From the UHGV virus genome UHGV-0106768: DNA of 44,108 bases; one strand, written 5' to 3'. Below the pieces are notes generated by a model, which was not told where the DNA came from, did no database searches, and was given only the letters and a program-made list of their open reading frames with translations. The stretch comes from a virus. Made by a program: the position numbers and the translations under genes. Every line of letters begins with the position of its first letter. Within the stretch, counting starts at the first letter, position 1. Positions 2,461 to 18,177 of this stretch are shown here, piece after piece.

Positions 2461-2520
2461 GCCGCGGCATTCGGAGCATGGCAAATCGATCATTACATTT
2501 GTTAGTCAGGGCGCGCACTG

Positions 2521-2644
2521 GCGGACAGATGCTCATAACGGAAAACAATGCCTGTGGTCTGTATAGACCGGAACAGGTACCGAAAGATTTTCCGTGTGGA
2601 CATTGTCTGCCTGCGTGCCTTTTCGCAGTAAGAGCATCTGCCGC
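2521..2644 (+). ncRNA. Three-way-junction structured leader element (unclassified cis-regulatory RNA candidate)
   Basis: Closing helix 2521-2534/2632-2644 (13 bp, one bulge). Inner helices 2538-45/2588-95, 2551-55/2573-77, 2556-60/2565-69 and 2611-15/2624-28. No credible ORF. Confidence 0.5.
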
Positions 2645-2650
2645 TGAGTG

Positions 2651-2671
2651 CGTTCCTTGCAGAAAGGAACG
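2651..2671 (+). promoter_or_regulatory. RBS-sequestering hairpin
   Basis: CGTTCCTT (2651-58) pairs perfectly with AAGGAACG (2664-71). The 3' arm is the only Shine-Dalgarno-like sequence before ATG 2675. Confidence 0.6.
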
Positions 2672-2674
2672 ATT

Positions 2675-3397
2675 ATGGAAAACGTGAATGTTCAGAATGC
2701 TGCCGCTATTACCGATCAGACCACACTCGGAGAACTGCTTGCAATGCTTGACCTCGCTGATAAGGCAGGCAAGATGCCGACACCGAGAGAACTGTTTGAG
2801 ACCGCCGGTGAGACGATTGCCGACATGAACGGCTGCACGCTCTTCAGCAACGGGTTCGCTGTCTACCAGAATATCACCGGACGTACTGTTGTCTGGCTGC
2901 CTTACTGTAAGAGCTTCACCTATTACTTCGGCAAGCTCCGTGATTCCGAGAAAGACACGCTGACAGAGACCTATGAGCTGCCGGATGGATTTCTGGAAAC
3001 ACAGCCGTGGGTGATCGCAGTAACACTGATCGGCGACCATCGTGTGGAGGCAAACAGCATGAACCGCACCGGCAGCCGCAAGGATACCACAGATTATGAC
3101 AGCGCCGATAACGGCGATAAAGACGGTGATGCAGAGGAGGCTTTGGCAGATCCGTATCGCAGGGCATTCAACTGGTATGACGGACGCATGGGCGAGAATC
3201 CGCAGGATGCCGTGGAGCGCAGAGAGACACGCGAGGAGATGCTTGCAGACATGACGGACAAGCAGCGTGAAGCCTTTATTATGTACTTCAGGGATGGTAT
3301 GACGCAGGAAGAGATTGCTTCATATATAGGGGTAAGCCGTGATTCCATAAATGACAGGCTTGAAGGTGCATTGAAAAAAGCAAAAAAATATTTTTGA
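2675..3397 (+). CDS. Sigma-70 region-4-like HTH regulator (sigma-factor-like protein of the kind seen in Clostridial ICEs and phages)
   Basis: The C-terminus DKQREAFIMYFRDGMTQEEIASYIGVSRDSINDRLEGALKKAKKYF matches the region-4 HTH pattern. The start is taken at ATG 2675 after AAGGAA. The track ORF starts at GTG 2648. Confidence 0.7.
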   Translation: MENVNVQNAAAITDQTTLGELLAMLDLADKAGKMPTPRELFETAGETIADMNGCTLFSNGFAVYQNITGRTVVWLPYCKSFTYYFGKLRDSEKDTLTETYELPDGFLETQPWVIAVTLIGDHRVEANSMNRTGSRKDTTDYDSADNGDKDGDAEEALADPYRRAFNWYDGRMGENPQDAVERRETREEMLADMTDKQREAFIMYFRDGMTQEEIASYIGVSRDSINDRLEGALKKAKKYF

Positions 3398-3441
3398 GGA
3401 TACCCACAAAAAGACCTCTCCCATGACAGTATATGAGAGGG
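3398..3441 (+). repeat. Copy 1 of a conserved 44-nt motif (GGATACCCACAAAA-N4-CCTCTCCCAYGACAGTATATGAGRGG)
   Basis: Nearly identical to 17237-17279. Contains hairpin CCTCTC/GAGAGG with a conserved 14-nt loop. Sits right after a gene end and a T-rich run. Confidence 0.7.
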
Positions 3442-3529
3442 CTTGAAAAGAAACCAAACCGCAAGCGGCTGCAAAGCCCTCGCAGCCGAACCATTATTAC
3501 ATCGGTCGAAAGACCTGAACAGAAAGGAA

Positions 3530-3895
3530 ATGCTTATGCCTATGGAAAACAGAGTCCCGAAAAACCGCTACAACGGCGGTGCCGCGCCCAATGCTGACAA
3601 ACAGGACAAGCCCGATGTGCTGAAGATGATCGAAACGGCAATGGACAAGCGTGCGGCTGGCATAGCACAGACGGTCACGGATATGTTCCGTTTCATGTCG
3701 ATGGCATCCGCCATGCTCCCGAATATGGAGATGGATGTCGGTGTGTTCCGTCTGAAGATCGACGATGACGGCGTGTTCTTTGAAATCCGCTACCCGTCCG
3801 GCTTCAGGCGCAAGCACAAGCCCGATGAGGACGGCGAAAAGCTGCCGGACAACTATGACGATAACGAGGAGGGACTGATCTATGACGGAGACTGA
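3530..3895 (+). CDS. Hypothetical protein
   Basis: Open frame with AAAGGA RBS before ATG 3530/3536. Its end overlaps the next gene. Confidence 0.55.
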   Translation: MLMPMENRVPKNRYNGGAAPNADKQDKPDVLKMIETAMDKRAAGIAQTVTDMFRFMSMASAMLPNMEMDVGVFRLKIDDDGVFFEIRYPSGFRRKHKPDEDGEKLPDNYDDNEEGLIYDGD

Positions 3896-4376
3896 GAAGA
3901 AGTTCACTGTGCCGGGACCGGTGCCTGTGGACGCAAAGAAGCTGATCGATGGGCTTGGTACGATCTTCGGCGGCGTGATCCAGATTCTGGCGGCAATGGA
4001 GCCGGGCATGGCAAAGGAACTGGCAGACATGGCGTTGGGCGGTGTGCCGAAGGAGCAGGTGCCGGAGACCATTAATCCGGACGATTTCGAGGAGATCATC
4101 GCTGCTGACGATCTGCCGTGGGATACAGAGCCGGAGCAGCCTGAACCGCCCAAGCCTGCGGAAAAATCCAAGCCGAAGAAGGCAGCAAAGAAGGCGGAGC
4201 CTGCATCGGAGCTGACCGCCGACGATCTCATCCGTGTGGTGACGCAGAAGATCAAGAAGGACCGCACCAACAAGGACAAAGTGCTGGCACTGCTGAAGTC
4301 CTACGGTGCGGCAAAGGTCAGCGACATTCCGCAGGAAAAGTATGAGGCGTTCCTCACGGATGTGTCGCAGCTCTGA
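3882..4376 (+). CDS. Hypothetical protein with a Pro/Lys-rich linker
   Basis: ATG 3882 preceded by GAGGAGGG. 164-aa ORF with protein-like composition. Confidence 0.6.
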   Translation: MTETEKKFTVPGPVPVDAKKLIDGLGTIFGGVIQILAAMEPGMAKELADMALGGVPKEQVPETINPDDFEEIIAADDLPWDTEPEQPEPPKPAEKSKPKKAAKKAEPASELTADDLIRVVTQKIKKDRTNKDKVLALLKSYGAAKVSDIPQEKYEAFLTDVSQL

Positions 4377-4390
4377 TCGGGGGTGGCATC

Positions 4391-5233
4391 ATGCCTGACG
4401 TTCACGCACTGCTCAGTGCGTCCAGTTCAAAACAGTGGCTACACTGTCCGCCGTCAGTCCGTTTGCAGGAGGGATTTCCGAATGAGAGTTCAGTCTACGC
4501 CGCAGAGGGCACGTTTGCCCACGAGATCTGCGAATACAAGGTACGTAAGTACCTGAAGGAGCGTGTGAAGCGTCCGCAGTCCGAGGAATATGACACCGAG
4601 GAAATCGAGCAGATCACAGATGTGTATGCGGAGTTCGTGATCTCCATCATTGAGCAGATGAAGGAGAACGGCTGTGAGCCGCTTGCTTTTGTTGAGGAGC
4701 GTGTGGACTACAGCCACATTGCCCCTTCCGGCTTTGGCACGGCAGATATGCTCATCATCGGTAAGGACGAGCAGGGACGCGGAATCCTTCATGTATGCGA
4801 TTTCAAGACGGGTGCAGGCGTGTTTGTGGATGCAGACCACAACAGCCAGATGATGCTCTATGCGATCGGAGCTTTAGCCGCCTACGGCTTTTTGTATGAT
4901 TTTGAGATCGTGCGTATGAGCATCATTCAGCCTCGTCTGGATAATATCAGCACATTCGAGTGTAGCAGAGCCGAGCTTGAGGAATGGGGCGAGAGCATCA
5001 AGCCCATTGCGAAACTTGCCTACGAGGGCAAAGGTGAACAGCACCCCGGCGACTGGTGTCGGTTCTGCCGTGCAAAGCCTGTTTGCAAAGCGTGTGCCAA
5101 TGAAGCACTGGCACTCTGCCGTGAGGATTTCCTTGACCTCGATGCCGGAGCATTCGATGATACTGCGGAGGAAAGCGATATGACCGCACCATACGAAGCG
5201 GATATACAGACTGCCGTATTCAAGCAGCCGTGA
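4391..5233 (+). CDS. DUF2800-type PD-(D/E)XK (Cas4-like) nuclease; upstream part, ends at an in-frame TGA
   Basis: N-terminus MPDVHALLSASSSKQWLHCPPS and the Cys cluster CRFCRAKPVCKAC are typical of DUF2800. The frame continues open after TGA 5231-5233. Confidence 0.75.
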   Translation: MPDVHALLSASSSKQWLHCPPSVRLQEGFPNESSVYAAEGTFAHEICEYKVRKYLKERVKRPQSEEYDTEEIEQITDVYAEFVISIIEQMKENGCEPLAFVEERVDYSHIAPSGFGTADMLIIGKDEQGRGILHVCDFKTGAGVFVDADHNSQMMLYAIGALAAYGFLYDFEIVRMSIIQPRLDNISTFECSRAELEEWGESIKPIAKLAYEGKGEQHPGDWCRFCRAKPVCKACANEALALCREDFLDLDAGAFDDTAEESDMTAPYEADIQTAVFKQP

Positions 5234-5362
5234 CTGATTCCTATCAGCGAACTTGCGGAGATCCTGCCGACTCTGAACCGCATCAGCTCTTGGATCGAGG
5301 CGGTATTCGCATTCGTATCCTCCGAGGCGATCAATCACGGTGTACCGATTCCCGGCTATAAG

Positions 5363-5638
5363 GTGGTCGAAGGGCGCAGCAAGCGTGTATTCACAGATAC
5401 AAAAGCTGTGGTCGATACCGCTGTTCAGAACGGGTACACCGACCTTTACAAGCAGACGCTCATCACGCTGACGGAATTTGAAAAGATGATGGGCAAGAAA
5501 AAGTTCAACGAGCTGCTCGGTGAGTATGTCGCCAAGCCACCCGGAAAGCTGGCACTTGTGCCGGAGAGCGATCCGAGAGAACCCGTTGATCTCACAACAC
5601 CCGGTCAGGAATTTGAAGTTCTCTCTGATGATGAGTGA
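5363..5638 (+). CDS. Downstream part of the DUF2800 nuclease gene
   Basis: Same frame as 4391..5233 and open from 5234. The sequence LIPISELAEILPTLNRISSWIEAV...GYKVVEGRSKRVFTD reads as the usual DUF2800 C-terminal region. No RBS of its own. Confidence 0.6.
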   Translation: MVEGRSKRVFTDTKAVVDTAVQNGYTDLYKQTLITLTEFEKMMGKKKFNELLGEYVAKPPGKLALVPESDPREPVDLTTPGQEFEVLSDDE

Positions 5639-5711
5639 GGATCATACAATAATGCCGCAATTATTCTGTTTGGTGAATACGCAAAATTGAATGAAATATA
5701 GGAGGTATACT

Positions 5712-6287
5712 ATGGCAAACACAACACCCGCGACTAAAGTGGTTATTCCCTGTCGCATTTCTTTTGCGAACATCTGGGAGCCAAAATCAATTAATGGCAG
5801 CGAAGAGAAGTATTCCGTTTCCCTACTGATCCCGAAGGATGACAAGGCAACGCTCGCCAAGATCAAGAAGGCAATTGAGGCGGCAAAGGAAGCGGCGAAG
5901 GAGAAGAAGTGGGGCGGCAAGATCCCGCCGAACCTCAAGCTGCCGATGCATGACGGCGACATCGACCGTCCTGATGACGAGAACTATGCCGGTCACTTCT
6001 TCTTCAATGCCACGAGCAAGGATGCACCGCAGATCGTTGACCGCCATGTGCAGCCGATTCTCGATCCGATGGAGTGCGGCAGCGGTGACTATTGCAATGT
6101 CAGCGTGAACTTCTACGGTTTTGCAGCATCCGGCAACAAGGGCATCGCAGCAGGACTCCAGAACATCCAGCTTGTCCGCCACGGTGAGCGTCTTGCCGGC
6201 AGGCCGACCGCCGCATCCGACTTCGTTGAGGTCGAGGGTGATGATGCGGATGATCTCGCAGACGATGATCTGGATTTCCTGAACTGA
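5712..6287 (+). CDS. DUF2815 family protein (phage SSB-like)
   Basis: GGAGG RBS before ATG 5712. The VVIPCRISFANIWEPKS N-terminus and acidic C-terminal tail (DDADDLADDDLDFLN) are typical of the DUF2815 partner of DUF2800 and PolA modules. Confidence 0.7.
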   Translation: MANTTPATKVVIPCRISFANIWEPKSINGSEEKYSVSLLIPKDDKATLAKIKKAIEAAKEAAKEKKWGGKIPPNLKLPMHDGDIDRPDDENYAGHFFFNATSKDAPQIVDRHVQPILDPMECGSGDYCNVSVNFYGFAASGNKGIAAGLQNIQLVRHGERLAGRPTAASDFVEVEGDDADDLADDDLDFLN

Positions 6288-6327
6288 CGCATAAGGGAGG
6301 CTTGCCTCCCTGTACATACACAAACAG

Positions 6328-9213
6328 GTGGTGATTTTATTGAGCAGACGTGTACTTTCTATCGACCTTGAGACCTACAGCGATGTTGACCTTCCGAACT
6401 GCGGTGTGTACCGCTATGTTGAGGGGGATTTTCATATCCTGCTGTTCGCATATGCATTCGATGATGAAGAAACAAAGTGTATCGACATGGCCTGCGGTGA
6501 ACAGCTTCCCGCAGAGGTTGTGGATGCCATACACAATGAAAATATCATCAAATCTGCGTGGAATGCGCAGTTTGAGCGCATCTGTCTGTCAAAATATCTC
6601 GGCATCAGGCTTTCTCCGGACTCGTGGCAATGCACGATGGTATGGGCGGCATCGCTGTCCCTGCCGCTGAAGCTGGCAACGGCAGCACAGGCTTTGAAAA
6701 CTGCACAGCAGAAAGACAGTGTCGGTGAACGGCTGATCCGCTACTTTTCGATTCCGTGTAAGCCTACCAAATCTAACGGCGGTCGCACACGCAATCTGCC
6801 GGAACACGCTCCGGAGGACTGGGCGCTGTTCAAAAGCTACTGTATTCAGGATGTGGAAACGGAACGGGATATCCGCCGAAGACTTGAAAAGTTTCCGCTG
6901 ATGCCGCAGGAATGGGATTTTTATCACATGGATCAGCGGATCAATGACCGCGGCATCCTGATCGACAGAGAGCTTGTGCAGCAGGCAATTATCTGTAATA
7001 TGGCAATGTCTGAGGAGATGACCAAACGCGCCTATGCACTGACGGGACTTGAAAATCCCAATTCTGTATCTCAGCTGAAGTCATGGCTGGAAGATCGCGG
7101 CATCGAGGTGGATTCCCTCGGCAAAAAGAATGTCGCTTCTCTGATCACAGACCTTGACAAGCACAGTGCGGACGGTGAAGCTCTGGATATGATGAAGCTG
7201 CGGTTGCAGATGGCAAAGTCCTCTGTGAAAAAGTATCAGGCGGCAGAGAGATACATCTGTCAGGACGGCAGGGCGCACGGACTGTTTCAGTTTTCCGGAG
7301 CTCAGCGAACACAGCGCTGGTGTCTTACCGGCGATCATGAAATACTGACAGATAAAGGCTGGCTCAGGCTTGATAATTGGCAGGGCGGTAAGATTGCTTG
7401 TTGGAATCCTAATCAGGAAATGGTCTCGTTCCAGAAAGCGAACGTATTGTGCTTTGAATATGACGGTCCTATCTACCGCTATGAGGACAAACGGATCGAT
7501 CAGATCAGCACGCCGGATCACAAAATGCGTGTAAAGAAACGGTATAACGGCGAGTGGACGGATGACACTGTTGGCAATATGGAAAAGTATCGTCCTTCTA
7601 TTCCGTTTACCGGACGCAGACAAACGATGCCCGGCTTGGAGCACGCAGAACTGAGGGTACTGGTGATGACGCAGGCTGACGGCAGCTATAAAGAAGATGG
7701 AATGCTCTGCTTCCATTTCAAGAAGAAAAGGAAAATAGAACGGTGCAAACATCTGCTCAGACAGGCGGGCATTTATTTCACAGTGAATGAATGCAGGACA
7801 GATGGAACAACGCAGATCAAGATTCCTTCCCGTGAGCAGCCGATGTATCTAAGAATGTTTCATAACAAGACATTTGGAATGTGGCTTCTCGATGAAAGCC
7901 CGGATGTTTTCTTTGATGAGCTTCGGTATTGGGACGGATCGCAAAGCGCCAAAAACAGTATCCAATATACCACAACGAACAAAGTGAATGCCGATATTGT
8001 TCAGGCTTTTGCTCATACAAGTGGTCGCTGTGCAAAAATGAAACCGGTCATCCGGGATAAAGAACACCCGAATTGGAGCGATGCATACTATCTCGATATA
8101 TGGCTCACTCCGAAAAACTGTCATGAAATCAGAGTGAAGCCGACTATCTCGCAATTCAGCGGCAAAATATACTGTGCTGAAACCCCAACCGGATACTTCC
8201 TTGTAAGACGTAATGGTAAAGTGTGGGTAACAGGAAACAGCGGGCGCGGCATTCAATTACAGAACCTGCCGCAGAACCACATCTCTACCCTCGATGAAGC
8301 AAGAGAACTTGTCAAAATGGGCTGCTTTGACATGATCGAAGCACTGTACGGCAATACGCCGGATATCCTGTCACAGCTTATCCGCACGATGCTCATTCCG
8401 AAGGACGGCTGTGAATTTATCGTGGCAGACTTCTCCGCCATTGAAGCGAGAGTACTTGCGTGGCTTGCCGGAGAACAGTGGCGGCTCGATGCCTTCAAGC
8501 GTGGCGAGGATATTTACTGTGCATCCGCATCGCAAATGTTCGGTGTTCCGGTCGTGAAGCACGGCATCAACGGTGAACTGCGGCAGAAAGGCAAGGTCGC
8601 AGAATTGGCCTGCGGTTACGGCGGCGGTGCCGGTGCGCTGATCTCAATGGGCGCACTGGATATGGGACTGAAAGAGGACGAACTTCCCGACATCATTTCA
8701 AGCTGGCGCGACGCAAACCCGGAGATCGTGAAATTCTGGTATGCTGTGGAAAAAGCCGCGATTGAAACAGTCAAGGATCACAATGACAGATCGGTCGGCC
8801 GGATCGGATTTCAGTTTTCAGCAAATACACTGTGGATCGTTCTTCCGTCCGGACGCAGGCTTGCCTACATCAAACCGAGATTACAGCCGAACCGCTTCGG
8901 GCGTATGGCACTGACATTTGAGGGGCTTGGTGCAAACAACAAGTGGGTGCGCGGCGAAACCTATTCCGGCAAGCTGACAGAGAACATCACACAGGCAACT
9001 GCCCGTGATCTCCTTGCAGAAGCAATGCGCCGTATAGAACTTGCAGGGCTTGGAATCGTCGGGCATGTGCATGATGAGGTCATTCTCGAAGTGCCGAAAG
9101 GACAATACACGGTCGATGATGTATGCAGCATCATGAATCAGAATCCGAAATGGGCGGAGGACTTACCGTTGTCAAGTGCAGGATATACGGGTGCATGGTA
9201 CTACAAAGATTAA
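6328..9213 (+). CDS. Family A DNA polymerase with 3'-5' exonuclease domain, interrupted by an intein
   Basis: Exo I SIDLETYSD, RT(Q)RW...SGRGIQLQNLPQ, motif A IVADFSAIEARVLAWL, motif C HVHDEV. The true start may be TTG 6340. Confidence 0.9.
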   Translation: MVILLSRRVLSIDLETYSDVDLPNCGVYRYVEGDFHILLFAYAFDDEETKCIDMACGEQLPAEVVDAIHNENIIKSAWNAQFERICLSKYLGIRLSPDSWQCTMVWAASLSLPLKLATAAQALKTAQQKDSVGERLIRYFSIPCKPTKSNGGRTRNLPEHAPEDWALFKSYCIQDVETERDIRRRLEKFPLMPQEWDFYHMDQRINDRGILIDRELVQQAIICNMAMSEEMTKRAYALTGLENPNSVSQLKSWLEDRGIEVDSLGKKNVASLITDLDKHSADGEALDMMKLRLQMAKSSVKKYQAAERYICQDGRAHGLFQFSGAQRTQRWCLTGDHEILTDKGWLRLDNWQGGKIACWNPNQEMVSFQKANVLCFEYDGPIYRYEDKRIDQISTPDHKMRVKKRYNGEWTDDTVGNMEKYRPSIPFTGRRQTMPGLEHAELRVLVMTQADGSYKEDGMLCFHFKKKRKIERCKHLLRQAGIYFTVNECRTDGTTQIKIPSREQPMYLRMFHNKTFGMWLLDESPDVFFDELRYWDGSQSAKNSIQYTTTNKVNADIVQAFAHTSGRCAKMKPVIRDKEHPNWSDAYYLDIWLTPKNCHEIRVKPTISQFSGKIYCAETPTGYFLVRRNGKVWVTGNSGRGIQLQNLPQNHISTLDEARELVKMGCFDMIEALYGNTPDILSQLIRTMLIPKDGCEFIVADFSAIEARVLAWLAGEQWRLDAFKRGEDIYCASASQMFGVPVVKHGINGELRQKGKVAELACGYGGGAGALISMGALDMGLKEDELPDIISSWRDANPEIVKFWYAVEKAAIETVKDHNDRSVGRIGFQFSANTLWIVLPSGRRLAYIKPRLQPNRFGRMALTFEGLGANNKWVRGETYSGKLTENITQATARDLLAEAMRRIELAGLGIVGHVHDEVILEVPKGQYTVDDVCSIMNQNPKWAEDLPLSSAGYTGAWYYKD
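7321..8238 (+). mobile_element. Class-1-type intein with LAGLIDADG homing-endonuclease domain inside the DNA polymerase
   Basis: Starts CLTGDHEILT and ends VWVTGN followed by Ser. Block B is TPDH. LAGLIDADG-like motifs LRVLVMTQADGS and FFDELRYWDGS. Removing it restores GAQRTQRW-SGRGIQLQNLP. Confidence 0.85.
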
Positions 9214-9247
9214 GTGTATAAACAATATTTCAGAGGAGGATATCTTT

Positions 9248-10297
9248 ATGAAACAAGGCAGATCATTACCGGAAGTGCTGACTGAGCTTCAGCGTCAGAA
9301 TGCGGCAAAGCAGGACTACATCGGTGCAGCGGAGGCTTTCCGTCTGGACGAGGACGGCAGCACATTCAATATTGGCACCGACCACAGCTTCGGCACCACG
9401 CAGCTTTTTCATCGTCAGGTGGCATCGGCGCTTGGCATTCCGGCGAAATACTACGATATGATGCAGAAACAGAAGCCCGATCTTCTGGCAGACAATGTGA
9501 ATGCATGGTTCAGTGACAAGGGCAGCAGCTACATGGTGCGTACCCTTGATTACGGCAGCGGACAGGTTGCGAGAGCCTTTCTGTCTGACCGTTACCGCCG
9601 TATCGATAACCTTGAAATTGCCTCGGCTGTTCTCCCGATTTTCGCCGGACAGGAAGGCATGGAGGTCATGAGCTGCGAGGTCACAGAGAATAAGCTGTAT
9701 CTGAAGATCGTCAATCACCGTCTGGAAATGGCGTGTGTCGGTGACCGTGTGCAGGCAGGTGTCATCATCTCCAATTCGGAGGTTGGACTCGGTGCTGTGT
9801 CTGTTCAGCCGCTTGTCTATACACTTGCCTGCACCAACGGCATGGTGGTCAACAGTATGGGCGAACGCCGTACCCATGTGGGCAGAGCTGCGAAGGCGCT
9901 GGAAGACAGCTTCAATATCTACACAGATGAAACCCTCGAAGCCGAAGATAAGGCATTCATGCTGAAGCTCCGTGATACCACAATGGCAGCAATTGAAGAG
10001 GCTCGTTTCGCACAGATCATCGGTGTGTTGGAGCAGAGCCACGGCGCAAAGATCACAGGACGTGTGCAGGATGTCATCGAACTGACCGGCAAGGCGTATG
10101 ACCTGAATCAGCCGGAACAGGACAGCATTCTGAACTATCTCATCAAGGGCGGCGATCTTTCCCTCTATGGTCTGAGCAATGCCATCACACGCGCTTCGCA
10201 GGATGTAGATTCCTACGACAGAGCCACTGCGTTAGAGGGCATCGGCTGGCAGGTGGCGACCATGCCTGCAAATCAGTGGAAGGAGATCAACGCATGA
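9248..10297 (+). CDS. DUF932 domain protein
   Basis: GAGGAGGA RBS. The IISNSEVGLGAVSVQPLVYTLACTNGMV core resembles the DUF932 signature. Confidence 0.65.
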   Translation: MKQGRSLPEVLTELQRQNAAKQDYIGAAEAFRLDEDGSTFNIGTDHSFGTTQLFHRQVASALGIPAKYYDMMQKQKPDLLADNVNAWFSDKGSSYMVRTLDYGSGQVARAFLSDRYRRIDNLEIASAVLPIFAGQEGMEVMSCEVTENKLYLKIVNHRLEMACVGDRVQAGVIISNSEVGLGAVSVQPLVYTLACTNGMVVNSMGERRTHVGRAAKALEDSFNIYTDETLEAEDKAFMLKLRDTTMAAIEEARFAQIIGVLEQSHGAKITGRVQDVIELTGKAYDLNQPEQDSILNYLIKGGDLSLYGLSNAITRASQDVDSYDRATALEGIGWQVATMPANQWKEINA

Positions 10298-10527
10298 GCA
10301 GAACCTGGAAAGACAGAAAAGGATATAAAACACGCAGAAAACGACACGGATATCCTGTGCCGGAAATCTGCAATTACACACGCGGCAGCTATGAAGATTA
10401 TGACCACAGCGATGAGGAACTGTATGTCGATGACCAGTGCTGCGAGAACTGCCGCTTTTGCGGATGTTGCCGTCATACACCGTTCCCGTCGGGCTGGTGC
10501 GAATACTGGAAGGACGGCACACATTGA
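10294..10527 (+). CDS. Small Cys-rich hypothetical protein
   Basis: ATGA start/stop overlap with the upstream gene. CCENCRFCGCCRH cluster. Confidence 0.5.
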   Translation: MSRTWKDRKGYKTRRKRHGYPVPEICNYTRGSYEDYDHSDEELYVDDQCCENCRFCGCCRHTPFPSGWCEYWKDGTH

Positions 10528-10964
10528 GAGAATATGTTGTCGAAAACGAGTTTATCAAGGCGGTAAAAGCGGCAGGCGGTGTGGCATACAAGCTGACATC
10601 GCAGACCGCAAACGGACTGCCGGACAGACTCGTTCTGTTCCCGGCGGCAAAGACGATTTTCGTGGAGCTGAAAGCACCGGGGAAAATGATGCGACCGTTG
10701 CAGCGTAAAAGACGGTATCAGCTTATGAAACTCGGCTTTCCGGTGCTGTGCATTGACAGGATGCCGCAGATCAAGCCGTTCATATCAGCAGCATTGTCAT
10801 GGACACCCGGTGAGCCGTTCCCGGAAGGCATCGGTGCGAAGATACCCGATCTGGAAAGGGCAACGCTGCCGACGGATATGGATAACTTCGGGGAAACGCT
10901 TGAACCCATCGATCCAGACAATCTGATAGAGTTTTATGAAATAGAGGACGGTGATGATGCATGA
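10524..10964 (+). CDS. VRR-NUC domain nuclease
   Basis: EFIKAVKAAGGVAYKL...GLPDRLVLFP...IFVELKAPGK matches the VRR-NUC (PD-(D/E)XK) pattern. The start is uncertain (TTG 10524 overlaps the upstream stop). Confidence 0.7.
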   Translation: MREYVVENEFIKAVKAAGGVAYKLTSQTANGLPDRLVLFPAAKTIFVELKAPGKMMRPLQRKRRYQLMKLGFPVLCIDRMPQIKPFISAALSWTPGEPFPEGIGAKIPDLERATLPTDMDNFGETLEPIDPDNLIEFYEIEDGDDA

Positions 10965-11458
10965 TTAACCCTAAACGCAGAGCTGTGAGAAAAAGCTGCT
11001 CATACTGCGGAACTGTCTTTACCTATGTCGGAAGTCATGGTACAAGAAATAAGCATTTTTTCTGTTCTCATGAATGCTATATTGCCTTTAAGACAAAGAA
11101 AGCAGAAGTGAAATGCGATTGGTGCGGCAAATCAATGCTGAAAAAACGCTCTGAAATATGGAGAACGGATCACAATTTCTGCTGCCCCGAATGCTGTTTA
11201 CTGTATAGGCAAAAGCAAGGCGAAACTTCATGGAATCATCGTGTGAATGGAATAACCGTACACAGGGGCATTTTGGAGAAGAAGCTCGGACGAGAACTGC
11301 GTGCGGATGAAGAAGTACACCATATCGATGGTAACCATTTCAATAATGATCCGGACAATCTCATCGCCCTTTCCAAATCGGAACACGCCAAAATTCATTC
11401 TTCTTGGAAAGCGAGGGACGAGTATGGAAAATACGTTAAAACGCAGTCAGATTCATGA
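10961..11458 (+). CDS. HNH endonuclease with N-terminal Cys4 zinc-finger-like motifs (possible free-standing homing endonuclease)
   Basis: EEVHHIDGNHFNNDPDNLIALSKSEHAKIH. CSYCG...CSHEC and CDWCG...CCPEC pairs. Confidence 0.8.
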   Translation: MINPKRRAVRKSCSYCGTVFTYVGSHGTRNKHFFCSHECYIAFKTKKAEVKCDWCGKSMLKKRSEIWRTDHNFCCPECCLLYRQKQGETSWNHRVNGITVHRGILEKKLGRELRADEEVHHIDGNHFNNDPDNLIALSKSEHAKIHSSWKARDEYGKYVKTQSDS

Positions 11459-12806
11459 ATACCAAAAATACTGTGTTGACTTTATTAAGTCTCATCCCGT
11501 ATCAGCACTCTTTTTGGATTGCGGACTTGGAAAGACGATCATTTCATTGACTGCAATATATGATCTAATGTTTGATGAGCTGAAGGTATTTAAAGTTCTT
11601 GTAATTGCCCCTCTAAGAGTGACAAATGTCTGGAAAGCGGAGGTTCAGAAATGGAGTCATCTGCAAGATGTTGATGTTGCGATAGTAGTCGGAACTGTAA
11701 AACAGCGGATTGCTGCGATTAACAGTAACGCTCTTGTTTACGCTGTCAACCGTGAAAATGTGAAGTGGCTCGTAGAGTATTACGAGAAAAACGGTCTTCG
11801 TTGGGATTTTGACATGATTGTCATTGACGAGCTGAGTTCCTTCAAAAACTACCAGTCACAGCGGTTCAAATGGTTGCGTAAGGTTCGGCCTTTCGTGAAG
11901 CGCTGGGTAGGCTTGACAGGTACGCCGACTTCCAACGGACTCATGGACTTATGGGCAGAGATCGGTATCCTTGACGGCGGTGAGAGGCTTGGACGATTTA
12001 TCGGGCGTTTCCGAGAGTCTTACTTCAAGCCTGCATCCATGAACCCAAGTACGGGTGTGGTGTTCTCATATACACCCCGTCCCGGTGCGGAGGAACAGAT
12101 ATATCAGAAGATCTCCGACATCACCATTTCTATGAAAGCACTGGACTATCTGGATATGCCTGAATGCGTGTATGTCAATCATGAGGTCGAGATGAATGCA
12201 GCGGAGCGAAAGCTCTACGATCAGTTGAAGCACGACCTCATTATCCCGCTTGAGGACGGCGACATTGATGCCGCCAACGCTGCATCGCTTTCCAATAAAC
12301 TGCTCCAGATGGCGAACGGCGCGGTCTATGATGAGAACAAGGAAACACGCACCATTCACAGCCGCAAGCTGGAGATGCTGGAAGACCTGATCGAATCGGC
12401 AAACGGACAACCTGTGCTGATCGGTTACTGGTTCAAGCATGACCGCACCCGAATTATAGAGCATCTGACCGCTTGTGGTTATGCTCCGAGGGATATTAAG
12501 GATTCCGACGATATCACTGACTGGAACGCCGGAAAGATCAGTGTTGCTCTGATACATCCGGCTTCGGCAGGACACGGACTGAATATCCAGTCCGGCGGTC
12601 ATATCCTGATCTGGTTTGGCCTGACATGGAGTCTGGAGCTGTATCAGCAGACCAATGCAAGACTCTGGCGGCAGGGGCAGCAGCACACTGTTACTATCCA
12701 TCACATCGTAACAAAAGACACAGTAGATGAAGATGTCCTGAAAGCTCTCGCTTCAAAGGACGTGACGCAGGAGAAGCTGATCGCAGCAGTCAAGGCAAGA
12801 TTGTAA
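11424..12806 (+). CDS. SNF2-family helicase
   Basis: LDCGLGKT (motif I), VIDELSSFKN (DExx box), and C-terminal helicase motifs GHGLNIQ and QTNARLWRQGQ. Confidence 0.9.
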   Translation: MENTLKRSQIHEYQKYCVDFIKSHPVSALFLDCGLGKTIISLTAIYDLMFDELKVFKVLVIAPLRVTNVWKAEVQKWSHLQDVDVAIVVGTVKQRIAAINSNALVYAVNRENVKWLVEYYEKNGLRWDFDMIVIDELSSFKNYQSQRFKWLRKVRPFVKRWVGLTGTPTSNGLMDLWAEIGILDGGERLGRFIGRFRESYFKPASMNPSTGVVFSYTPRPGAEEQIYQKISDITISMKALDYLDMPECVYVNHEVEMNAAERKLYDQLKHDLIIPLEDGDIDAANAASLSNKLLQMANGAVYDENKETRTIHSRKLEMLEDLIESANGQPVLIGYWFKHDRTRIIEHLTACGYAPRDIKDSDDITDWNAGKISVALIHPASAGHGLNIQSGGHILIWFGLTWSLELYQQTNARLWRQGQQHTVTIHHIVTKDTVDEDVLKALASKDVTQEKLIAAVKARL

Positions 12807-12902
12807 CAATATACAGTCTGTATGATCCACCCCTTATTGACGACAGGAAGACGGCAAAGCGGCGACAATTCGGTTACGCCGCAAACCACGGAGGTGAAAA
12901 CT

Positions 12903-13388
12903 ATGGCTCGTAAGAACAAACGCCTAAAAACAGAATACCACAGAGGGCTCGGCTTTGATCCGAGAAAATATATTACGGCACCGGTGCAGCACCACACCAT
13001 CGCTCACAAGCCGCAGCGCGGTGACATCTGGTTTGCGGATCTTGGCTGTCATCCGGATTCCAGCGTGCAGAGCGGCATCCGTCCGGTTATCATTCTCTCG
13101 AATGATATGGGCAATGCACACGCCGACACGGTCAATATCATTCCCATGACGCGGCATCTGAAAAAGCCGGAGCTGCCGTGCCATACGCATCTGTTCCCCG
13201 ACAGTATTTCCGATCTTCATCAGCATCTATATCCGTCCATGATCCTGGCGGAGCAGCTCACGACTGTCAGCAAGCATGCGCTTCGCAGCTATGCCGGACA
13301 TATCTCGGACGCCGATGCGATGAACCGTATTGAAACCGCTGTCATTGCACAGCTTTTCATTGAAAGGAGACATTCCGAATGCCTGTAA
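12903..13388 (+). CDS. PemK/MazF-fold toxin-like protein
   Basis: GGAGGTG RBS. PQRGDIWFADLG...SGIRPVIILSNDMGN...VNIIPMT matches the PemK/MazF core. No antitoxin-like ORF is adjacent. Confidence 0.65.
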   Translation: MARKNKRLKTEYHRGLGFDPRKYITAPVQHHTIAHKPQRGDIWFADLGCHPDSSVQSGIRPVIILSNDMGNAHADTVNIIPMTRHLKKPELPCHTHLFPDSISDLHQHLYPSMILAEQLTTVSKHALRSYAGHISDADAMNRIETAVIAQLFIERRHSECL

Positions 13389-15808
13389 ATTTCGTAAATA
13401 TCCCGGACGCACTGAAGCAGTCGGCATCCTTCTGTGTCTGGAAGCTGGAAAAGAGATCCGGACGCCCCACAAAAGTGCCGTACAATCCGAGAACCGGCAA
13501 CATGGCAAAAACCAACGAGCCGGACACCTTCACCGACTTCAAGACCGCTATGAAAGCGTATGCGATTGGCGGCTGGAACGGCATCGGCTACAGAGTTTCC
13601 GAGGGAATCGGTGCAATCGACATCGACCACTGTATCCGGGAGGACGGCAGCCTGAATGATGTGGCAGCATCCATTCTCGGTATCTTCAGCACTGCCTACT
13701 TTGAACGCTCTCCATCCGGCACCGGACTGCGCGGCTTCTTCAAACTCAGCCCTGAGTTTGCCTACGATAAGACTGTGTACTACATCAACAACCGCAAACA
13801 CGGTCTGGAGGTCTATCTGCCCGGAACGACCAACCGCTTTGTAACTGTTACGGGAGATATGTTCCGTCCCGGTACCGTTGAGCGTGATGATGATGCACTC
13901 CGCAATCTGCTTGACACCTTCATGAAGCGCAGCACCCGTGTATCAAATAAGACGATCGAGCCTGCATCCTATCTTGATGACGAGGGTGTCATCGCACACG
14001 CATTCGCCTCTGCTTCTGGTGATAAATTCAAAGCACTCTACGAGGGACACTGGGAGGAAGGCTATGATTCGCAGTCTGATGCAGACATGGCGTTCGTGTC
14101 CATGCTGTGCTTCTGGTGCGGCAATGTGGAGGAGCAGATCGACCGTATCTTCCGAACTTCCGGTCTGATGCGTGATAAGTGGGATCGTATGACCGGTGAC
14201 AGGACCTACGGTCAGATCACGATCCGCAATGCCATCGCATCGACATCCGAGATCTATACACCTATTGCGGACTCCTCCGCAGAGGATGATTTTGAAGATA
14301 TTGAGGGCGAGACAGATACAGAGCAGCTGATGTTTGAGCCGGATTTCACCCACATCACCCTGACGCTGGAACAGATGCAGCCGCACACAAATCCTCGCTA
14401 TCAGCGTGACGAGATCGGTATTGGCTATGCATTTGCGGATTACTATAAGCCAATCGCTCATTTCGACCGTGAGCGCGGTATCTGGTATGTCTTTGACGGG
14501 AAGGTGTGGCAGCCGGACGAAAATGCTCTCGCTGTGGCGGAGATTGCAAAGCGTCTGGCAGACAGGCTGTATACCTTCGCCCTTCAGATCAAGGATGAGG
14601 ATACTCGAAACAGGTATATCAAGCGTGTACAGAAGCTCCAACTCCGCAAAAACCGCCGCACCATGATCGAAGATGCGAAATCCGTGTATCCAGTGCCGCA
14701 CGCTATCTTTGACCGCAATACCGATCTGTTCAACAGTCAGAACGGCACGCTGAACCTCACCACAGGTGAATTCCGTCCGCACGATCCGGCAGACTTTCTC
14801 ACCATGATGTCCGGTGTCACCTATGATCCGAATGCCACCTGTCCGAGATGGGAGCAGTTCATTTCCGAAGTTATGTGTAACGATGCTGACCTCGCATTAT
14901 ACTTGCAAAAAGCCCTCGGATATGCGCTTACCGGCGACACATCGCTCGAATGCCTGTTCATCCTCTACGGTGCGACCTCCCGAAACGGAAAAGGCACCAC
15001 AATGGAGACATTTCTGAAGATCATGGGTGATTACGGCAAAACCTCCAATCCGGAGATGCTGTCTACAAAATTCGGCAACACCAATGCGTCCGGACCGTCT
15101 GAGGAGATTGCTCGCCTTGCGGGTGTGCGTTTCGTTAATATCTCCGAGCCGGAGAAGAAGATCACCTTCAATGCAGCACTGGTAAAGCGTATGACGGGTA
15201 ACGATACACTGAATGCTCGTTTTCTGCATGAGAACAGCTTCGATTTCAAGCCGAATTTCAAGATCTTCATCAATACGAATTACAAACCGTCCGTTTCTGA
15301 TATGACACTGTTTTACTCCAACCGTCTGAAGCTCATTCCGTTCAAACGCCATTTTGAGGAGCATGAGCAGGACAAAGGTCTGAAAGCATTTTTCAGTACG
15401 GATGTCTGCCTCTCTGCCATCTTTAACTGGTGCTATGAAGGATATAAGCGGTTTCGTTCCGAAGGTCTGGAGGATCCGGCTGCTGTTTCTCAGGCAACCA
15501 AGGAGTATCAGGAGGAGTCTGACCGCATCGGTCAGTTTGTGGATGCATGGCTCGAAGAAGGCGAAGCATTTGAAGTTCGTACCTCTGCGGCATATAAGCT
15601 GTACGGTGAATGGTGCGATAAGTATGGCTACCGCAAGGAGAACAGCACCAACTTCAATAATGCGATTCAGCGTTTCTTCCCCATCGTGCGTAAGCGTCCG
15701 AACGATACAAAGGGTGCGCAGAAAACAACAATGCTTGTGGGGTGCCGTTTCCTGGATCATGAAAACGGCGAAGCTGACGAACCGGATGAGTTTGCTGCCT
15801 TGGAGTAA
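13379..15808 (+). CDS. Bifunctional primase-polymerase / D5-P4-type primase-helicase
   Basis: N-terminal prim-pol (GIGAIDIDHC), PriCT-like SDADMAFVSMLCFWCG, and Walker A ILYGATSRNGKGT of phage/plasmid P4-family primases. Confidence 0.85.
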   Translation: MPVNFVNIPDALKQSASFCVWKLEKRSGRPTKVPYNPRTGNMAKTNEPDTFTDFKTAMKAYAIGGWNGIGYRVSEGIGAIDIDHCIREDGSLNDVAASILGIFSTAYFERSPSGTGLRGFFKLSPEFAYDKTVYYINNRKHGLEVYLPGTTNRFVTVTGDMFRPGTVERDDDALRNLLDTFMKRSTRVSNKTIEPASYLDDEGVIAHAFASASGDKFKALYEGHWEEGYDSQSDADMAFVSMLCFWCGNVEEQIDRIFRTSGLMRDKWDRMTGDRTYGQITIRNAIASTSEIYTPIADSSAEDDFEDIEGETDTEQLMFEPDFTHITLTLEQMQPHTNPRYQRDEIGIGYAFADYYKPIAHFDRERGIWYVFDGKVWQPDENALAVAEIAKRLADRLYTFALQIKDEDTRNRYIKRVQKLQLRKNRRTMIEDAKSVYPVPHAIFDRNTDLFNSQNGTLNLTTGEFRPHDPADFLTMMSGVTYDPNATCPRWEQFISEVMCNDADLALYLQKALGYALTGDTSLECLFILYGATSRNGKGTTMETFLKIMGDYGKTSNPEMLSTKFGNTNASGPSEEIARLAGVRFVNISEPEKKITFNAALVKRMTGNDTLNARFLHENSFDFKPNFKIFINTNYKPSVSDMTLFYSNRLKLIPFKRHFEEHEQDKGLKAFFSTDVCLSAIFNWCYEGYKRFRSEGLEDPAAVSQATKEYQEESDRIGQFVDAWLEEGEAFEVRTSAAYKLYGEWCDKYGYRKENSTNFNNAIQRFFPIVRKRPNDTKGAQKTTMLVGCRFLDHENGEADEPDEFAALE

Positions 15809-15846
15809 AAGTAGACTTTTCTCCGTATTTGCGCTGTTTTCCGCAG

Positions 15847-15938
15847 TTGGGGCAACGTGGGGCAAGTTTTTTCGGTGGTTATTATTATTACTTCTCTTTA
15901 TATATATTACTATTTTTACTTGCCCCTACTTGCCCCAA
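15847..15938. repeat. 21-nt inverted repeat flanking a 50-nt AT-rich spacer; candidate origin core
   Basis: TTGGGGCAACGTGGGGCAAGT (15847-67) versus the reverse complement of ACTTGCCCCTACTTGCCCCAA (15918-38). The spacer is TTTTTCGGTGGTTATTATTATTACTTCTCTTTATATATATTACTATTTTT. Confidence 0.5.
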
Positions 15939-16114
15939 ATAAATAAAAACAATAGAAAAGATAAGAAGAATAGAGGATTTTCACTGATTTGAACCATTAC
16001 CCATTTTGCACTGTTTTGAACCTTGCCCGATGCTGTCACTGACAAAGAGTGTGTAAGCGACAAAGCGTGGCAAGGTCAAAATCCAACGATCAATCATGCA
16101 GGAGGAACAAGAAT

Positions 16115-17209
16115 ATGAGAATCATCACTTCAGAACAGGTATCCGCAGGACACCCCGACAAGATCTGTGACCAGATCGCAGATGCTATCGTGACCGACTG
16201 CCTGCAGCATGACCACAACAGCCGTGTCGCCATCGAGTGCCTTTTCAAGAACCGCTTCCTTGTGATCGCCGGTGAACTGACCAGCACCCATGAGCCCGAC
16301 TACAAGGCACTGGTGCAGAGCGTGTTTGACCGCATCAACAACGGCGGAGCAGAGAGTACCGATGCAGGTTTTGATTACAAGCTGGATTTCACAGCCGATG
16401 ATCTGGACATTGCGATTCTGGTCGATCACCAGAGTAGCGACATTGCCCTCGGTGTGAATACCGGCGGTGCAGGAGATCAGGGTATGATGTACGGCTATGC
16501 GACCAACGAAACGCCGGAGATGCTCCCGATCCCCTTCGTGCTGGCTACCAGATTTCTGGAACTGCTGAAAGCCTACCCCTGCCGTATGCTGAAAGCCGAC
16601 GCAAAGGCACAGGTCAGCTATGACTATGACAGCGGTCGCATTACCACCTTCCTCTGCTCGGTGCAGCATACACACGATGTGGATGTTGAGGACTTCAAGC
16701 CCATCATCGAAAAGCTGATGGTGAGAACGGCAACCGAATACGGGCTGAATACAGACTTTGCAAAGCTCGTCAACCCGACCGGCAGATTTGTCATAGGCAG
16801 TTCCTTTGCGGACTGCGGCGTTACCGGACGCAAGCTCGCCTGCGATACCTATGGCGGTATCGGGCATATCGGCGGCGGTGCAATGTCCGGCAAAGATCCG
16901 TCTAAGGTTGACCGCAGCGGCGCATATGCAGCAAGAAAAATCGCAAGGGATATCGTCAGTGCCGGATATGCGGATATGGCAGAGGTGCAGATCGCATATG
17001 CCATCGGCGTGGCAGAACCCGTATCCGTGTATGTGGAAACCTTCGGCACGGAGCATCAGGATACGGAGTTCATCAGCCAGTATGTCCGTGAGAACTACGA
17101 CCTGACACCGAGAGGTATCATTGAAGGACTGCATTTGCTGGATGTGGACTACAACGCTGTTTCCGCATACGGACACTTCGGAAAACAGAACCTTCCGTGG
17201 GAACTATAA
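16115..17209 (+). CDS. metK: S-adenosylmethionine synthetase
   Basis: GGAGGA RBS. SAGHPDKICDQIADAI, GAGDQGMMYGYA and GGGAMSGKDPSKVDRSGAY motifs. Confidence 0.9.
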   Translation: MRIITSEQVSAGHPDKICDQIADAIVTDCLQHDHNSRVAIECLFKNRFLVIAGELTSTHEPDYKALVQSVFDRINNGGAESTDAGFDYKLDFTADDLDIAILVDHQSSDIALGVNTGGAGDQGMMYGYATNETPEMLPIPFVLATRFLELLKAYPCRMLKADAKAQVSYDYDSGRITTFLCSVQHTHDVDVEDFKPIIEKLMVRTATEYGLNTDFAKLVNPTGRFVIGSSFADCGVTGRKLACDTYGGIGHIGGGAMSGKDPSKVDRSGAYAARKIARDIVSAGYADMAEVQIAYAIGVAEPVSVYVETFGTEHQDTEFISQYVRENYDLTPRGIIEGLHLLDVDYNAVSAYGHFGKQNLPWEL

Positions 17210-17236
17210 TAAATTTTTTGAAATTTTTTTTTGATT

Positions 17237-17279
17237 GGATACCCACAAAATGCCCTCTCCCACGACAGTATATGAGGGG
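17237..17279 (+). repeat. Copy 2 of the conserved 44-nt motif
   Basis: GGATACCCACAAAATGCCCTCTCCCACGACAGTATATGAGGGG. The stem is kept through an A-to-G change giving a G-U pair. Again follows a gene end and a T-run. Confidence 0.7.
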
Positions 17280-17360: not shown

Positions 17361-17720
17361 ATGCCGAGCAGACCAAAGACACCATGCCGTCACCCCGGCT
17401 GTGCGGCGCTCGTACCCTACGGTGCGAAGTACTGCGGCAAGCACCGTTCTCTCCATCCGGAGGATACACGCTCCGCAGGCAGTCGAGGCTATGGCACCGC
17501 ATGGAACAAGGCCCGCAAGCGTTACCTTGAGACGCATCCGCTGTGTGTGGAGTGCATGAAGCAAGGACGCTACGTCAAGGCGACCGATGTGGATCACATC
17601 ATGCCGCACCGAGGAGACAATGTTCTCTTCTGGGATCAGAGCAACTGGCAGAGCCTCTGCCACCGACACCACAGCATCAAAACCAGAAACGAGGATCACA
17701 CCCCTGAGTACAAGTACTGA
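17361..17720 (+). CDS. HNH endonuclease (the type usually found next to phage terminase genes)
   Basis: GGAAGGAGG RBS. CVECMKQGRYVKATDVDHIMPHRGD...WQSLCHRHHSIKT. Confidence 0.8.
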   Translation: MPSRPKTPCRHPGCAALVPYGAKYCGKHRSLHPEDTRSAGSRGYGTAWNKARKRYLETHPLCVECMKQGRYVKATDVDHIMPHRGDNVLFWDQSNWQSLCHRHHSIKTRNEDHTPEYKY

Positions 17721-18177
17721 CTGCGGCTCACCAACTTACTCTGCGATTCAGACTCGGCTCAGGGGTGTACCTATGGGCGGGGCTGGGGGCTGGGGCTGCC
17801 CGCCGGGGCGGGTTCATTTCTCTGTGTGAAAGCGAACACAAGACCGTCGGCCCCTCTCGTGTGAAAAAACGCGAATTTGCAAGGGCCCCGGTCATTTGGG
17901 ACACTGACAGAGATATATTAGCTGTAAATGAAATACTGTGCAGAAAACAGAAAACGCAGATTTTTCGTGCTTTTCCATATGCTGCCGTAGGAAACTGCGG
18001 CCGCAGGATACATACAGAGTTTCGTTACAAAATGCACTGTAAAACGGCGAATTTACGTCAAAAAGCGATAGAATTAGCACATTTTTAGCGCCAAACCGCA
18101 TTTTACAGTTTTATTCTTGGCGGAGCCCGTGTGGATACCGAAAACCGCATAAAATCAGAAGTTTCGAGGTGAATCAG

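Follow-up and report, generated by a model that had tools for sequence, protein, structure and literature searches.

A bipartite site at the head of two prophage operons co-varies with the recognition helix of a phage-encoded sigma region-4 protein

Introduction

Which function has a short motif that stands twice in one viral genome, both times at the head of a long gene block, and which protein reads it? This question is raised by UHGV virus genome UHGV-0106768, a prophage-like element whose whole stretch of 44,108 nucleotides (hereafter the window) was analysed and in which all genes lie on the + strand. The initial annotation, made from the letters of the window, had described a 44-nt hairpin motif at 3398-3441 (+, copy 1) and 17237-17279 (+, copy 2) and had offered a promoter or operator, an antitermination or RNA-processing site, or a pair of recombination sites as explanations. 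Here we describe the motif as part of a larger site present in many related prophages, and compare its variable box with the DNA-reading helix of a sigma-like protein of 240 amino acids (aa), encoded at 2675-3397 and designated the factor. The two copies are probably bipartite phage-specific promoters, or DNA sites where the factor loads RNA polymerase.

Results

Both copies read exactly as quoted in the initial annotation. The 14-mer GGATACCCACAAAA occurs exactly twice in the window, and so does the 18-mer CCCAYGACAGTATATGAG, for which 0.04 occurrences are expected by chance. A weight matrix for the site was derived from 28 related sites and used to score both strands of the window; it gave 97.9 bits for copy 1 and 86.9 bits for copy 2, and with the next-best score below 0 no further site was found on either strand. 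The weak third match reported at 18133-18146 was rejected, as it has four mismatches in the 14-mer, nothing core-like at the fixed distance and a matrix score below 0. The context described for the copies was confirmed at both: copy 1 starts one base past the stop codon of the sigma-like gene and copy 2 starts 27 nt past the metK stop, an A/T-rich run precedes each, and the first gene of a co-directional block follows at a distance of ~90-125 nt (genes 3530/3536 and 17361). When the intergenic regions of both copies were aligned with each other, similarity extended from the upstream A/T tract (TTTTTGA) to directly after GAGRGG. The near-identity of the copies therefore stands, but the unit is ~70 bp long rather than 44.

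Related loci were gathered with three queries, namely the factor protein, the HNH protein and the core sequence of the site. They belong to prophages of Ruminococcus and Oscillospiraceae, most of them of rumen or gut origin; the hosts are Ruminococcus flavefaciens, with its isolate 007c (relative L067, NZ_ATAX01000017), and further members of Ruminococcus and Oscillospiraceae. The search of related phages which the initial annotation had called for was positive: in ~100 related loci the site lies directly after the factor gene (site A), and many of them carry a second one before the HNH gene (site B). All share one layout, in which an A-tract and then a T-tract are followed by a few bases, a 13-bp box, three variable bases and the core CTCCCAYGACAGTATATGAGRGG. 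The distance from the start of the box to GACAG is 26 nt at all sites, and the core is almost invariant among phages with factors 52-98% identical. Two elements at fixed spacing, intergenic and co-oriented with the downstream genes, constitute the arrangement of a bipartite promoter. Site A ends in GAGAGG, site B in GAGGGG followed by [AC]GTTGYT. The literature search found the core sequence in no paper, nor any paper linking R. flavefaciens prophages to sigma factors.

The A/T tract is kept both in coding DNA at site A, as codons KKAKK(Y/F)F*, and in non-coding DNA at site B. UP elements have the consensus AAAWWTWTTTT at about -57 to -47; the tract AAAAATATTTT fits this consensus, and its promoter coordinate depends on the unmapped start site. 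In the window, the final seven factor codons (KKAKKYF*, 3376-3397, +) serve also as A-tract/T-tract of copy 1, and the C-terminal peptide is apparently kept in most relatives due to this DNA constraint. The number of sites varies: contig 10350_000307 (L018/L030/L055) has four instead of two, of which two form a tandem with a distance of 170 nt behind the factor gene and one lies just 30 nt before the ATG of a 144-aa open reading frame (ORF) whose Shine-Dalgarno sequence (SD) overlaps GAGAGG.

The box differs between phages, and its differences track the recognition helix of the C-terminal helix-turn-helix (HTH) of the factor (Table 1), which in the window reads VSRDSINDRL. For 38 unique helix/box pairs with 23 helices, the mean box distance (out of 12) was 1.12 where helices were at most one residue apart and 7.41 otherwise. 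Helix and box distances were correlated (Mantel r=0.58, p=1e-4), also when divergence of the N-terminal domain (N-domain) of the factor was controlled for (partial Mantel r=0.43, p=1e-4). Among the structured segments of the factor, none varies as much as the recognition helix (1.95 bits vs ~1.0-1.1 elsewhere). Individual phages illustrate the relation. Between L074 and L079 the N-domains are 1% different, the helices are different and the boxes differ at 11 of 14 positions. L018, L019, L395 and L479 have the helix and box of the window, yet their N-domains are ~50% different; L395 combines this helix and the box GGATACCCACAAAA with an N-domain 48% identical and a different core.

Table 1. Recognition helices of factor proteins and the boxes that accompany them
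Helix	Box
SRDS[VI]NDRL	TACCCACAAA
[AS]KMSVNERL	ACCCCTTACAAA
N[HR]RAVGFRL	ATACTACCAAAA (NHRAVGFRL: GATACTACCAAAA)
RVSTVHQHM	GATACCGAAAATTT
SQ[RK][AG]V[ND]YRL	GATACTTCT[AG]AAA
[ST]QVGVKHHL	ATAGTTAT
SRRT[LI]REHL	GACCCGCCATTT
DQTT[IV]RD	ATACCCCTAAAA
TKPAVYVRL	GACTTTAACTTTT
SQQDIYQT	CATATTGTT
ARTTIMHRL	GATACGGTCAAAAC

The helix codons and site A are ~100 nt apart, so that helix and box might be transferred together in one recombination block with no functional link between them. Site B, ~14 kb away, has the same box as site A (at most 2 mismatches in 12 positions) in 12 of the 13 genomes with both sites. Mismatches between A and B boxes totalled 14 over these 13 genomes, compared with 65.3±7.9 when B sites were shuffled among genomes (p<1e-5). 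For the GATACCGAAAATTT class, the B site was forecast from the A site and then found. The upstream element has co-evolved with the DNA-reading helix independently of physical linkage. At the level of sequence co-variation, the 13-bp box is shown to be the recognition target of the region-4 helix of the factor.

The C-terminal part of the factor matched Sigma70_r4_2 (7e-10) and Sigma70_r4 (2e-8) in Pfam, which gave no other match in this protein. NCBIfam TIGR02937 scored 47 bits, above its cut-off, over profile positions 96-164 only, and a PDB profile search retrieved SigF region 4 at 4e-8; the fold resembles the region-4 DNA complexes of SigW/SigE. Pfam and profile matches together with the helix/box co-variation characterise this part as a region-4 HTH of the sigma-70 type that reads a -35-type element. 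Structure prediction by AF2 reached a pLDDT of 76.6 with an alignment of 84 sequences (48 with 30 sequences). The model consists of an N-domain (~10-131, pLDDT 81-92) of two helices, six short β-strands and one long helix, a disordered acidic linker (residues 132-156) and a four-helix sigma-4 domain. The N-domain has no match to a known family or fold, and a BFVD fold search with the factor model returned nothing significant. A phmmer search with the N-domain against 1.8 billion representatives retrieved 170 proteins, the distant ones of which carry Sigma70_r4 and never region 2; the N-domain was always fused to region 4. No phage genome deposited in INPHARED encodes it.

A parallel phage lineage (IMG/VR contigs L329-L349 and L380-L403) has a second core type, ..TATATAGTAGAGGC / ..CCCCCYSGAAAYGSTATATAGTAGAGGC or CTCCCRSACTATATAGTAGAGGC. 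Its phages use boxes from the same repertoire as those of core 1, and their A and B sites have matching boxes. The register is fixed: both cores share CC.CTC (motif 18-23), TATA (33-36) and AGAGG (39-43), and the distance from box to GAGG is 38 in core-1 and core-2 sites. The factor homologues of the core-2 phages are 43-50% identical and form a separate clade in the N-domain tree, and this distribution weakly suggests that the N-domain goes with the core type. A possible third core, CTCCCACGCCTTTATATAGGGGGAG, was observed in L355.

The factor gene is preceded by a structured leader RNA of 180 nt (Table 2), which is present as a single copy in each of ~100 loci and as two copies in L021/L050. 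Its DNA is 94% identical to that of L402, whose factor is 43% identical. The minimum free energy of the leader is -77.1 kcal/mol (z = -5.7). Its long-range helix (24-37 with 135-147) is invariant, and its central hairpin P2 folds into one long hairpin in each of seven sequence classes with mutual similarity below 70% (z -1.9 to -5.1), with the basal pair 42-97 switching from C-G to A-U. Bases 10-20 can pair with 115-122 or with 152-162, and GUUCCUU (155-161) can alternatively sequester the Shine-Dalgarno sequence AAGGAAC (167-173). This may be the anatomy of a translational switch, as judged from the folds. An Rfam search with the leader gave no match even at E<=1. ORFs 2318-2566 and 2346-2687 were considered as a partner subunit of the factor and rejected, since the region shows DNA-level conservation irrespective of frame and forms an RNA fold. 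They are probably not genes: matches in tblastn across the leader jump between frames, and for this reason the ORFs called there appear spurious. Upstream of the leader, a short block (2323-2372, +; CCTCTATATGCCGGATGCATACGGCAGAGG ACGGTCATATGAGAGC) shares 81-87% identity with the distant relatives L402, L395 and L017; it ends in the core-reminiscent CATATGAGAG and has a low score with the site matrix.

The coordinates of all features are compiled in Table 2. The window begins with a gene of ImmA-like peptidase fold and an Xre-type HTH gene (105-2033), followed by terminators, an A/T-rich gap, the factor gene and copy 1. The operon headed by copy 1 encodes a DUF2800 nuclease, an Enc34-type single-stranded DNA-binding protein, DNA polymerase A, DUF932, VRR-NUC-like and HNH proteins, an SNF2 helicase, a MazF-domain protein, a D5-type primase and metK. 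In the leader of this operon, the stem adjacent to the ribosome-binding site changes compensatorily among L008, L010, L016, L017, L021, L066 and L073 (GGTC/GACC, GGCC/GGCC, CGGG/CCCG; by eye); RNAalifold found no consensus for this hairpin on a short and poor alignment.

Table 2. Features of the site, the factor gene and the adjoining transcription units in the window
Feature	Position	Strand	Description
5' leader of the factor gene, 180 nt	2498..2677	+	long-range helix, long variable hairpin, SD-sequestering hairpin; no Rfam match
Factor gene, 240 aa	2675..3397	+	N-terminal α/β domain (~10-131), acidic disordered linker, C-terminal sigma-70 region-4 HTH (~176-237)
A-tract/T-tract of copy 1, AAAAAAATATTTTT	3382..3395	+	UP-element-like; overlaps the last factor codons (KKAKKYF*); conserved at DNA level in 28 sites
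Specificity box of copy 1, GATACCCACAAAA	3399..3411	+	fixed distance to core; co-varies with the region-4 recognition helix; identical in copy 2
Invariant core of copy 1, CCTCTCCCATGACAGTATATGAGAGG	3415..3440	+	nearly invariant in 45 distinct sites; contains -10-like TATA (3430-3433) and the GAGAGG block
Leader of the replication-module operon	3442..3529	+	hairpin CGGCTGC...GCAGCC and small GGTC-GAAA-GACC hairpin at the ribosome-binding site; by eye in relatives
Operon headed by copy 1	3530..17209	+	Pfam/PHROG matches
A/T tract of copy 2, TAAATTTTTTGAAATTTTTTTTT	17210..17232	+	non-coding DNA past the metK stop
Specificity box of copy 2, GATACCCACAAAA	17238..17250	+	same letters as the box of copy 1
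Core of copy 2, CCTCTCCCACGACAGTATATGAGGGG	17254..17279	+	'type B' variant; conserved CGTTGYTCAGACCG comes next
Block headed by copy 2	17361..26848	+	HNH endonuclease, small ORFs, DUF3310, NrdD/NrdG, ParB-methyltransferase, DNA methyltransferases

Beyond the block of copy 2 lie a cargo region (amidoligases, γ-glutamyl cyclotransferase) and then terS (34945), terL, portal, protease, major head and tail genes. The region 26916-34575 (+) contains six to nine repeated intergenic units at ~26926, 28478, 29710, 30599, 31275, 32328, 33175, 33727 and 34523. Each unit has a canonical promoter TTGATA/TTGCTA-17-TAAYAT (or TATACT/TATAGT) with TTTA(C/G)nnGC upstream and a conserved leader GTGACACAACGGAAGGGCAAACGCCC..GGAGG downstream, and heads one small gene cassette (amidoligases, γ-glutamyl cyclotransferase, unknowns); the last one precedes the block of terS and structural genes. 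Three further proteins drew attention. Residues ~332-657 of the 961-aa DNA polymerase A (6328-9213, +) match PhoH-like and ribonucleotide reductase PHROGs and not polymerase, and this enzyme probably carries an inserted, intein-like element. The 888-aa terL product (35466-38132) has its matches in two separated stretches. Between SNF2 helicase and primase in the replication module, a 188-aa protein (12822-13388, +) contains a PemK/MazF toxin domain (E 8e-20).

Discussion

The site is read here as a promoter because it heads two operons in co-orientation, has a bipartite fixed geometry, carries TATA at a -10-like position and is preceded by an UP-like tract. It has no sigma-A-like -35, unlike the TTGATA-17-TAAYAT promoters of the window (six to nine copies, 26.9-34.6 kb), and would therefore need something beyond plain host sigma-A. 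The initial annotation had named the phage sigma-like protein as possible reader, and this proposal is supported by the comparison, with a box that co-varies with the region-4 helix of this protein and is identical at two sites 14 kb apart. The HTH protein (18169-18471) had been named as an alternative reader; nothing links it to the motif.

In the scheme we propose, the factor gene would be expressed from the early region, behind its structured leader RNA. The sigma-70 region-4 HTH of the factor would then read the 13-bp box GATACCCACAAAA. The core CTCCCAYGACAGTATATGAGRGG would supply the -10-like or melting element and the start region, read by the N-domain or by host RNA polymerase, and the upstream A-tract/T-tract may act like an UP element. 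By this means the factor would switch on two transcription units: copy 1 would drive the replication module (3530-17209) and copy 2 the HNH / ribonucleotide reductase / methyltransferase block from 17361. Transcription is predicted to start at motif positions ~38-46, which for copy 1 means within the core or just past it. In the relative with a site 30 nt before an ATG, the overlap of the Shine-Dalgarno sequence with GAGAGG speaks for a start no later than position ~40.

Two versions of this scheme can be envisaged. The factor may be an activator that makes the -35 contact and leaves TATA(T/G)(G/T) to be read by host sigma-A, by analogy to Ltr proteins or MotA; or it may be a non-canonical sigma whose N-domain handles the core. 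A more ambitious version, which we put forward tentatively and regard as rather unlikely in its entirety, makes the factor a new RNA-polymerase specificity factor, in which sigma-4 was kept and region 2 gave way to an unrelated α/β domain; connected through an acidic linker, this domain would read or open the invariant core of 23-26 bp. The box/core and helix/N-domain modules would have been shuffled among phages to give at least 13 orthogonal factor/promoter pairs with at least two core types, gated by a new structured leader RNA.

Several observations weigh against promoters served by the factor. A sigma region 2 (PF04542 type) was not found in the factor by Pfam, NCBIfam, PHROGs, PDB profile search or fold. 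Filing it as a standard sigma-70 factor fails on this region, and without a recognisable region 2 it may be an activator rather than a true sigma. If TATA (motif 33-36) served as -10, the centre of the box would be placed ~4-5 bp upstream of a canonical -35. The 23-26 invariant bases are more than a -10 element needs, and because of this excess the core may carry a second function, e.g. at the 5' end of the mRNA. The association between N-domain and core type comprises one clade split only and could be plain co-inheritance. Contigs 31555_010547 (L012/L028/L334/L392) and 29305_011788 (L014/L360/L400) form an exception with a box mismatch at site B. In this lineage site A has core 1 with box GATACTACCAAAAT, and site B has another core (..GGTATATAGTAGAGGC) with box CACCCCGCCATTTT. 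Within the 23 kb examined there is no second factor gene; mosaicism of the phage, or a second factor encoded outside those 23 kb, could account for the exception. Finally, promoter activity at both sites is inferred from the sequences.

Of the alternatives, the best surviving one takes the sites as operators. The sigma-4-domain protein would then be a repressor or autoregulator which blocks upstream read-through or host-polymerase promoters elsewhere in the intergenic regions. Co-variation proves recognition and not activation, copy 1 directly follows the factor's own gene, and the protein has no sigma-2 domain, all of which would suit a repressor. We nevertheless consider this function unlikely, as both sites head operons that the phage must switch on. 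Moreover, no canonical host-type promoter stands beside either site, although clear ones exist elsewhere in the window, and the invariant TATA-containing core at fixed spacing with an upstream A/T tract has promoter-like geometry. The experimentally studied analogues, the Ltr proteins, are activators (PMC3753634).

A second alternative assigns the function to RNA. The transcribed hairpin (CCUCUC / 14-nt loop / GAGAGG) would serve in read-through transcripts as a signal for processing, stabilisation or antitermination. The 6-bp stem CCTCTC/GAGAGG, which the initial annotation described as retained, can indeed be folded in both window copies (-11 and -14.2 kcal/mol; z -1.8 and -2.2), but it is not a conserved structure in the relatives. 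Stem cells pair in 76.4% of cases over 45 distinct core-1 sites, compared with 76.0% after the 3' letters were shuffled, and 71.7% still pair when the 3' arm is slid by +2 columns. The covariation score was 0.148 against 0.146 in shuffles, and 203 of 500 shuffles were as good. In several lineages the 5' arm is broken (AAACGCTC, GACTACTC, CAATCACTC, GCACGATC) while loop and 3' arm are unchanged. GAGAGG can also pair with CCUC ~10 nt downstream in many relatives (by eye). The change from phage to phage, however, sits in the box, outside the hairpin, and tracks a DNA-binding helix.

With pair counts and covariation no better than in shuffles, the hairpin was rejected as a functional unit. The complementarity of CCTCTC and GAGAGG is best read as a by-product of a conserved DNA core in which a pyrimidine-rich block faces a purine-rich block. 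A structured cis-regulatory RNA is likewise not indicated, covariation being at shuffle level and Rfam giving no match to the motif; no tRNA was found either. The antitermination or RNA-processing site that had been suggested falls with the covariation and the Rfam result, and on the + strand no downstream terminator is present on which an antiterminator could act. Taken together, an RNA function of the motif is very unlikely. A site of the lambda Q type was also considered and rejected, since a sigma-A-like -35 is absent and the interval from motif to first gene has no terminator on the + strand.

Even less probable is a role of the direct repeats as recombination or module-boundary sequences for exchange or excision of the 13.8-kb replication module, which had also been suggested. 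The repeats do flank a functional module, and it is exactly at the second site that one lineage appears mosaic. The copies have no associated recombinase, however, their number varies up to four in one contig with two of them 170 nt apart, and the box co-varies with a sigma-4 HTH and not with a recombinase fold; conserved promoters can serve as passive homology for mosaicism without having that function.

That the copies are intrinsic terminators, of upstream genes on the + strand or of antisense transcription on the - strand, is hardly credible: a consensus scan did give a weak - strand match at the copy-1 hairpin, with AGGTCTTTTT behind it, and a T-rich run lies upstream of both copies, but the + strand has no U-run after the stem, the T-run comes before the stem with no G+C-rich hairpin ahead of it, the loop is 14 nt long in place of a short one, every gene is on the + strand, and 23 invariant bases with a factor-matched box are atypical of terminators, in line with the earlier argument for sequence-specific recognition and against a generic terminator.

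The closest experimentally characterised analogues of the factor are the Ltr activators of Gram-positive phages. The Ltr superfamily comprises phage late-transcription activators, and its family II LtrA (Sigma70_r4) has 'limited similarity' to sigma-70 region 4 (Quiles-Puchalt et al. 2013, PMC3753634). Each of these proteins acts specifically at its own site, and its gene directly precedes the target (PMC3753634; RinA, PMC3152322). The factor shares with them that it is phage-encoded with a region-4-like part alone recognisable, that its gene lies directly upstream with the target starting just past the coding sequence, that it appears specific for its cognate site, and that one protein would switch on a long operon. 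It differs in size and architecture: Ltr proteins are single-domain proteins of ~15 kDa, whereas the factor has 27 kDa and 240 aa, with an additional conserved α/β N-domain of ~120 residues and a linker. Ltr proteins act at three 7-nt direct repeats upstream of PterS; here one box and a 23-26-bp invariant core are found and no 7-nt repeats. The Ltr gene stands before terS, in contrast to the factor gene, which stands before the replication module with terS at 34945, 31 kb away, and the factor has a second target 14 kb from the first. No ArpU/RinA-type family of NCBIfam matched the factor.

Alternative and phage sigma factors, in particular those of the extracytoplasmic function (ECF) type, offer a second comparison, with a bipartite site of fixed spacing whose upstream element is read by a sigma-4 HTH. 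The region-4 fold as in the SigW/SigE DNA complexes and the TIGR02937 match above cut-off agree with this group. SPO1 gp28 and PBSX Xpf are phage-encoded sigma factors with cognate bipartite promoters, and many boxes start with an (A/T)AC motif reminiscent of the AAC in ECF -35 elements. Unlike sigma factors, the factor has no detectable region 2, an N-domain with β-strands and a TIGR02937 match confined to positions 96-164; unlike at canonical promoters, the spacing from box to TATA is longer than that from -35 to -10.

In the MotA/AsiA system of T4, a phage factor recognises a box that replaces the -35, the -10-like element is kept and middle genes including those for replication are switched on. 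The site resembles this scheme with a factor-read box in the place of the -35, a -10-like element and replication genes downstream. MotA binds DNA via a double-wing domain and AsiA is needed; the factor uses a sigma-4 HTH, and no homology to MotA was found. Promoters of single-subunit polymerases of the T7/SP6 type have ~23 invariant bases, and the SP6 segment GACACTATAGAAGAG resembles GACAGTATATGAGAGG here. No single-subunit RNA polymerase is encoded in the window, whose large ORFs were assigned other functions. The 961-aa Pol A homologue was rejected as reader of the core, being a DNA polymerase (PHROG 17, E 6e-137). The resemblance of the core to T7/SP6 promoters is probably a coincidence.

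The system described here combines a remarkably clear recognition code with an unfamiliar N-domain and an unannotated leader RNA. If the copies are indeed promoters read by the factor, helix SRDSINDRL would specify box GATACCCACAAAA and helix KMSVNERL box GACCCCTTACAAA. The helix-to-box table, with 23 helices in ~13 specificity classes, would represent a readable recognition code of sigma-4 domains, which is rare in natural systems, and its pairs could give orthogonal expression parts for Clostridia-class bacteria. The N-domain, if it is a replacement of sigma region 2, is relevant to the ways in which RNA polymerase may be redirected, and the leader RNA before the factor gene may be a new class of regulatory RNA. 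These results provide a testable scheme for an uncultured phage group, the Ruminococcus/Oscillospiraceae prophages widespread in rumen and gut: one factor would act at two promoters to control replication together with nucleotide and methylation functions.

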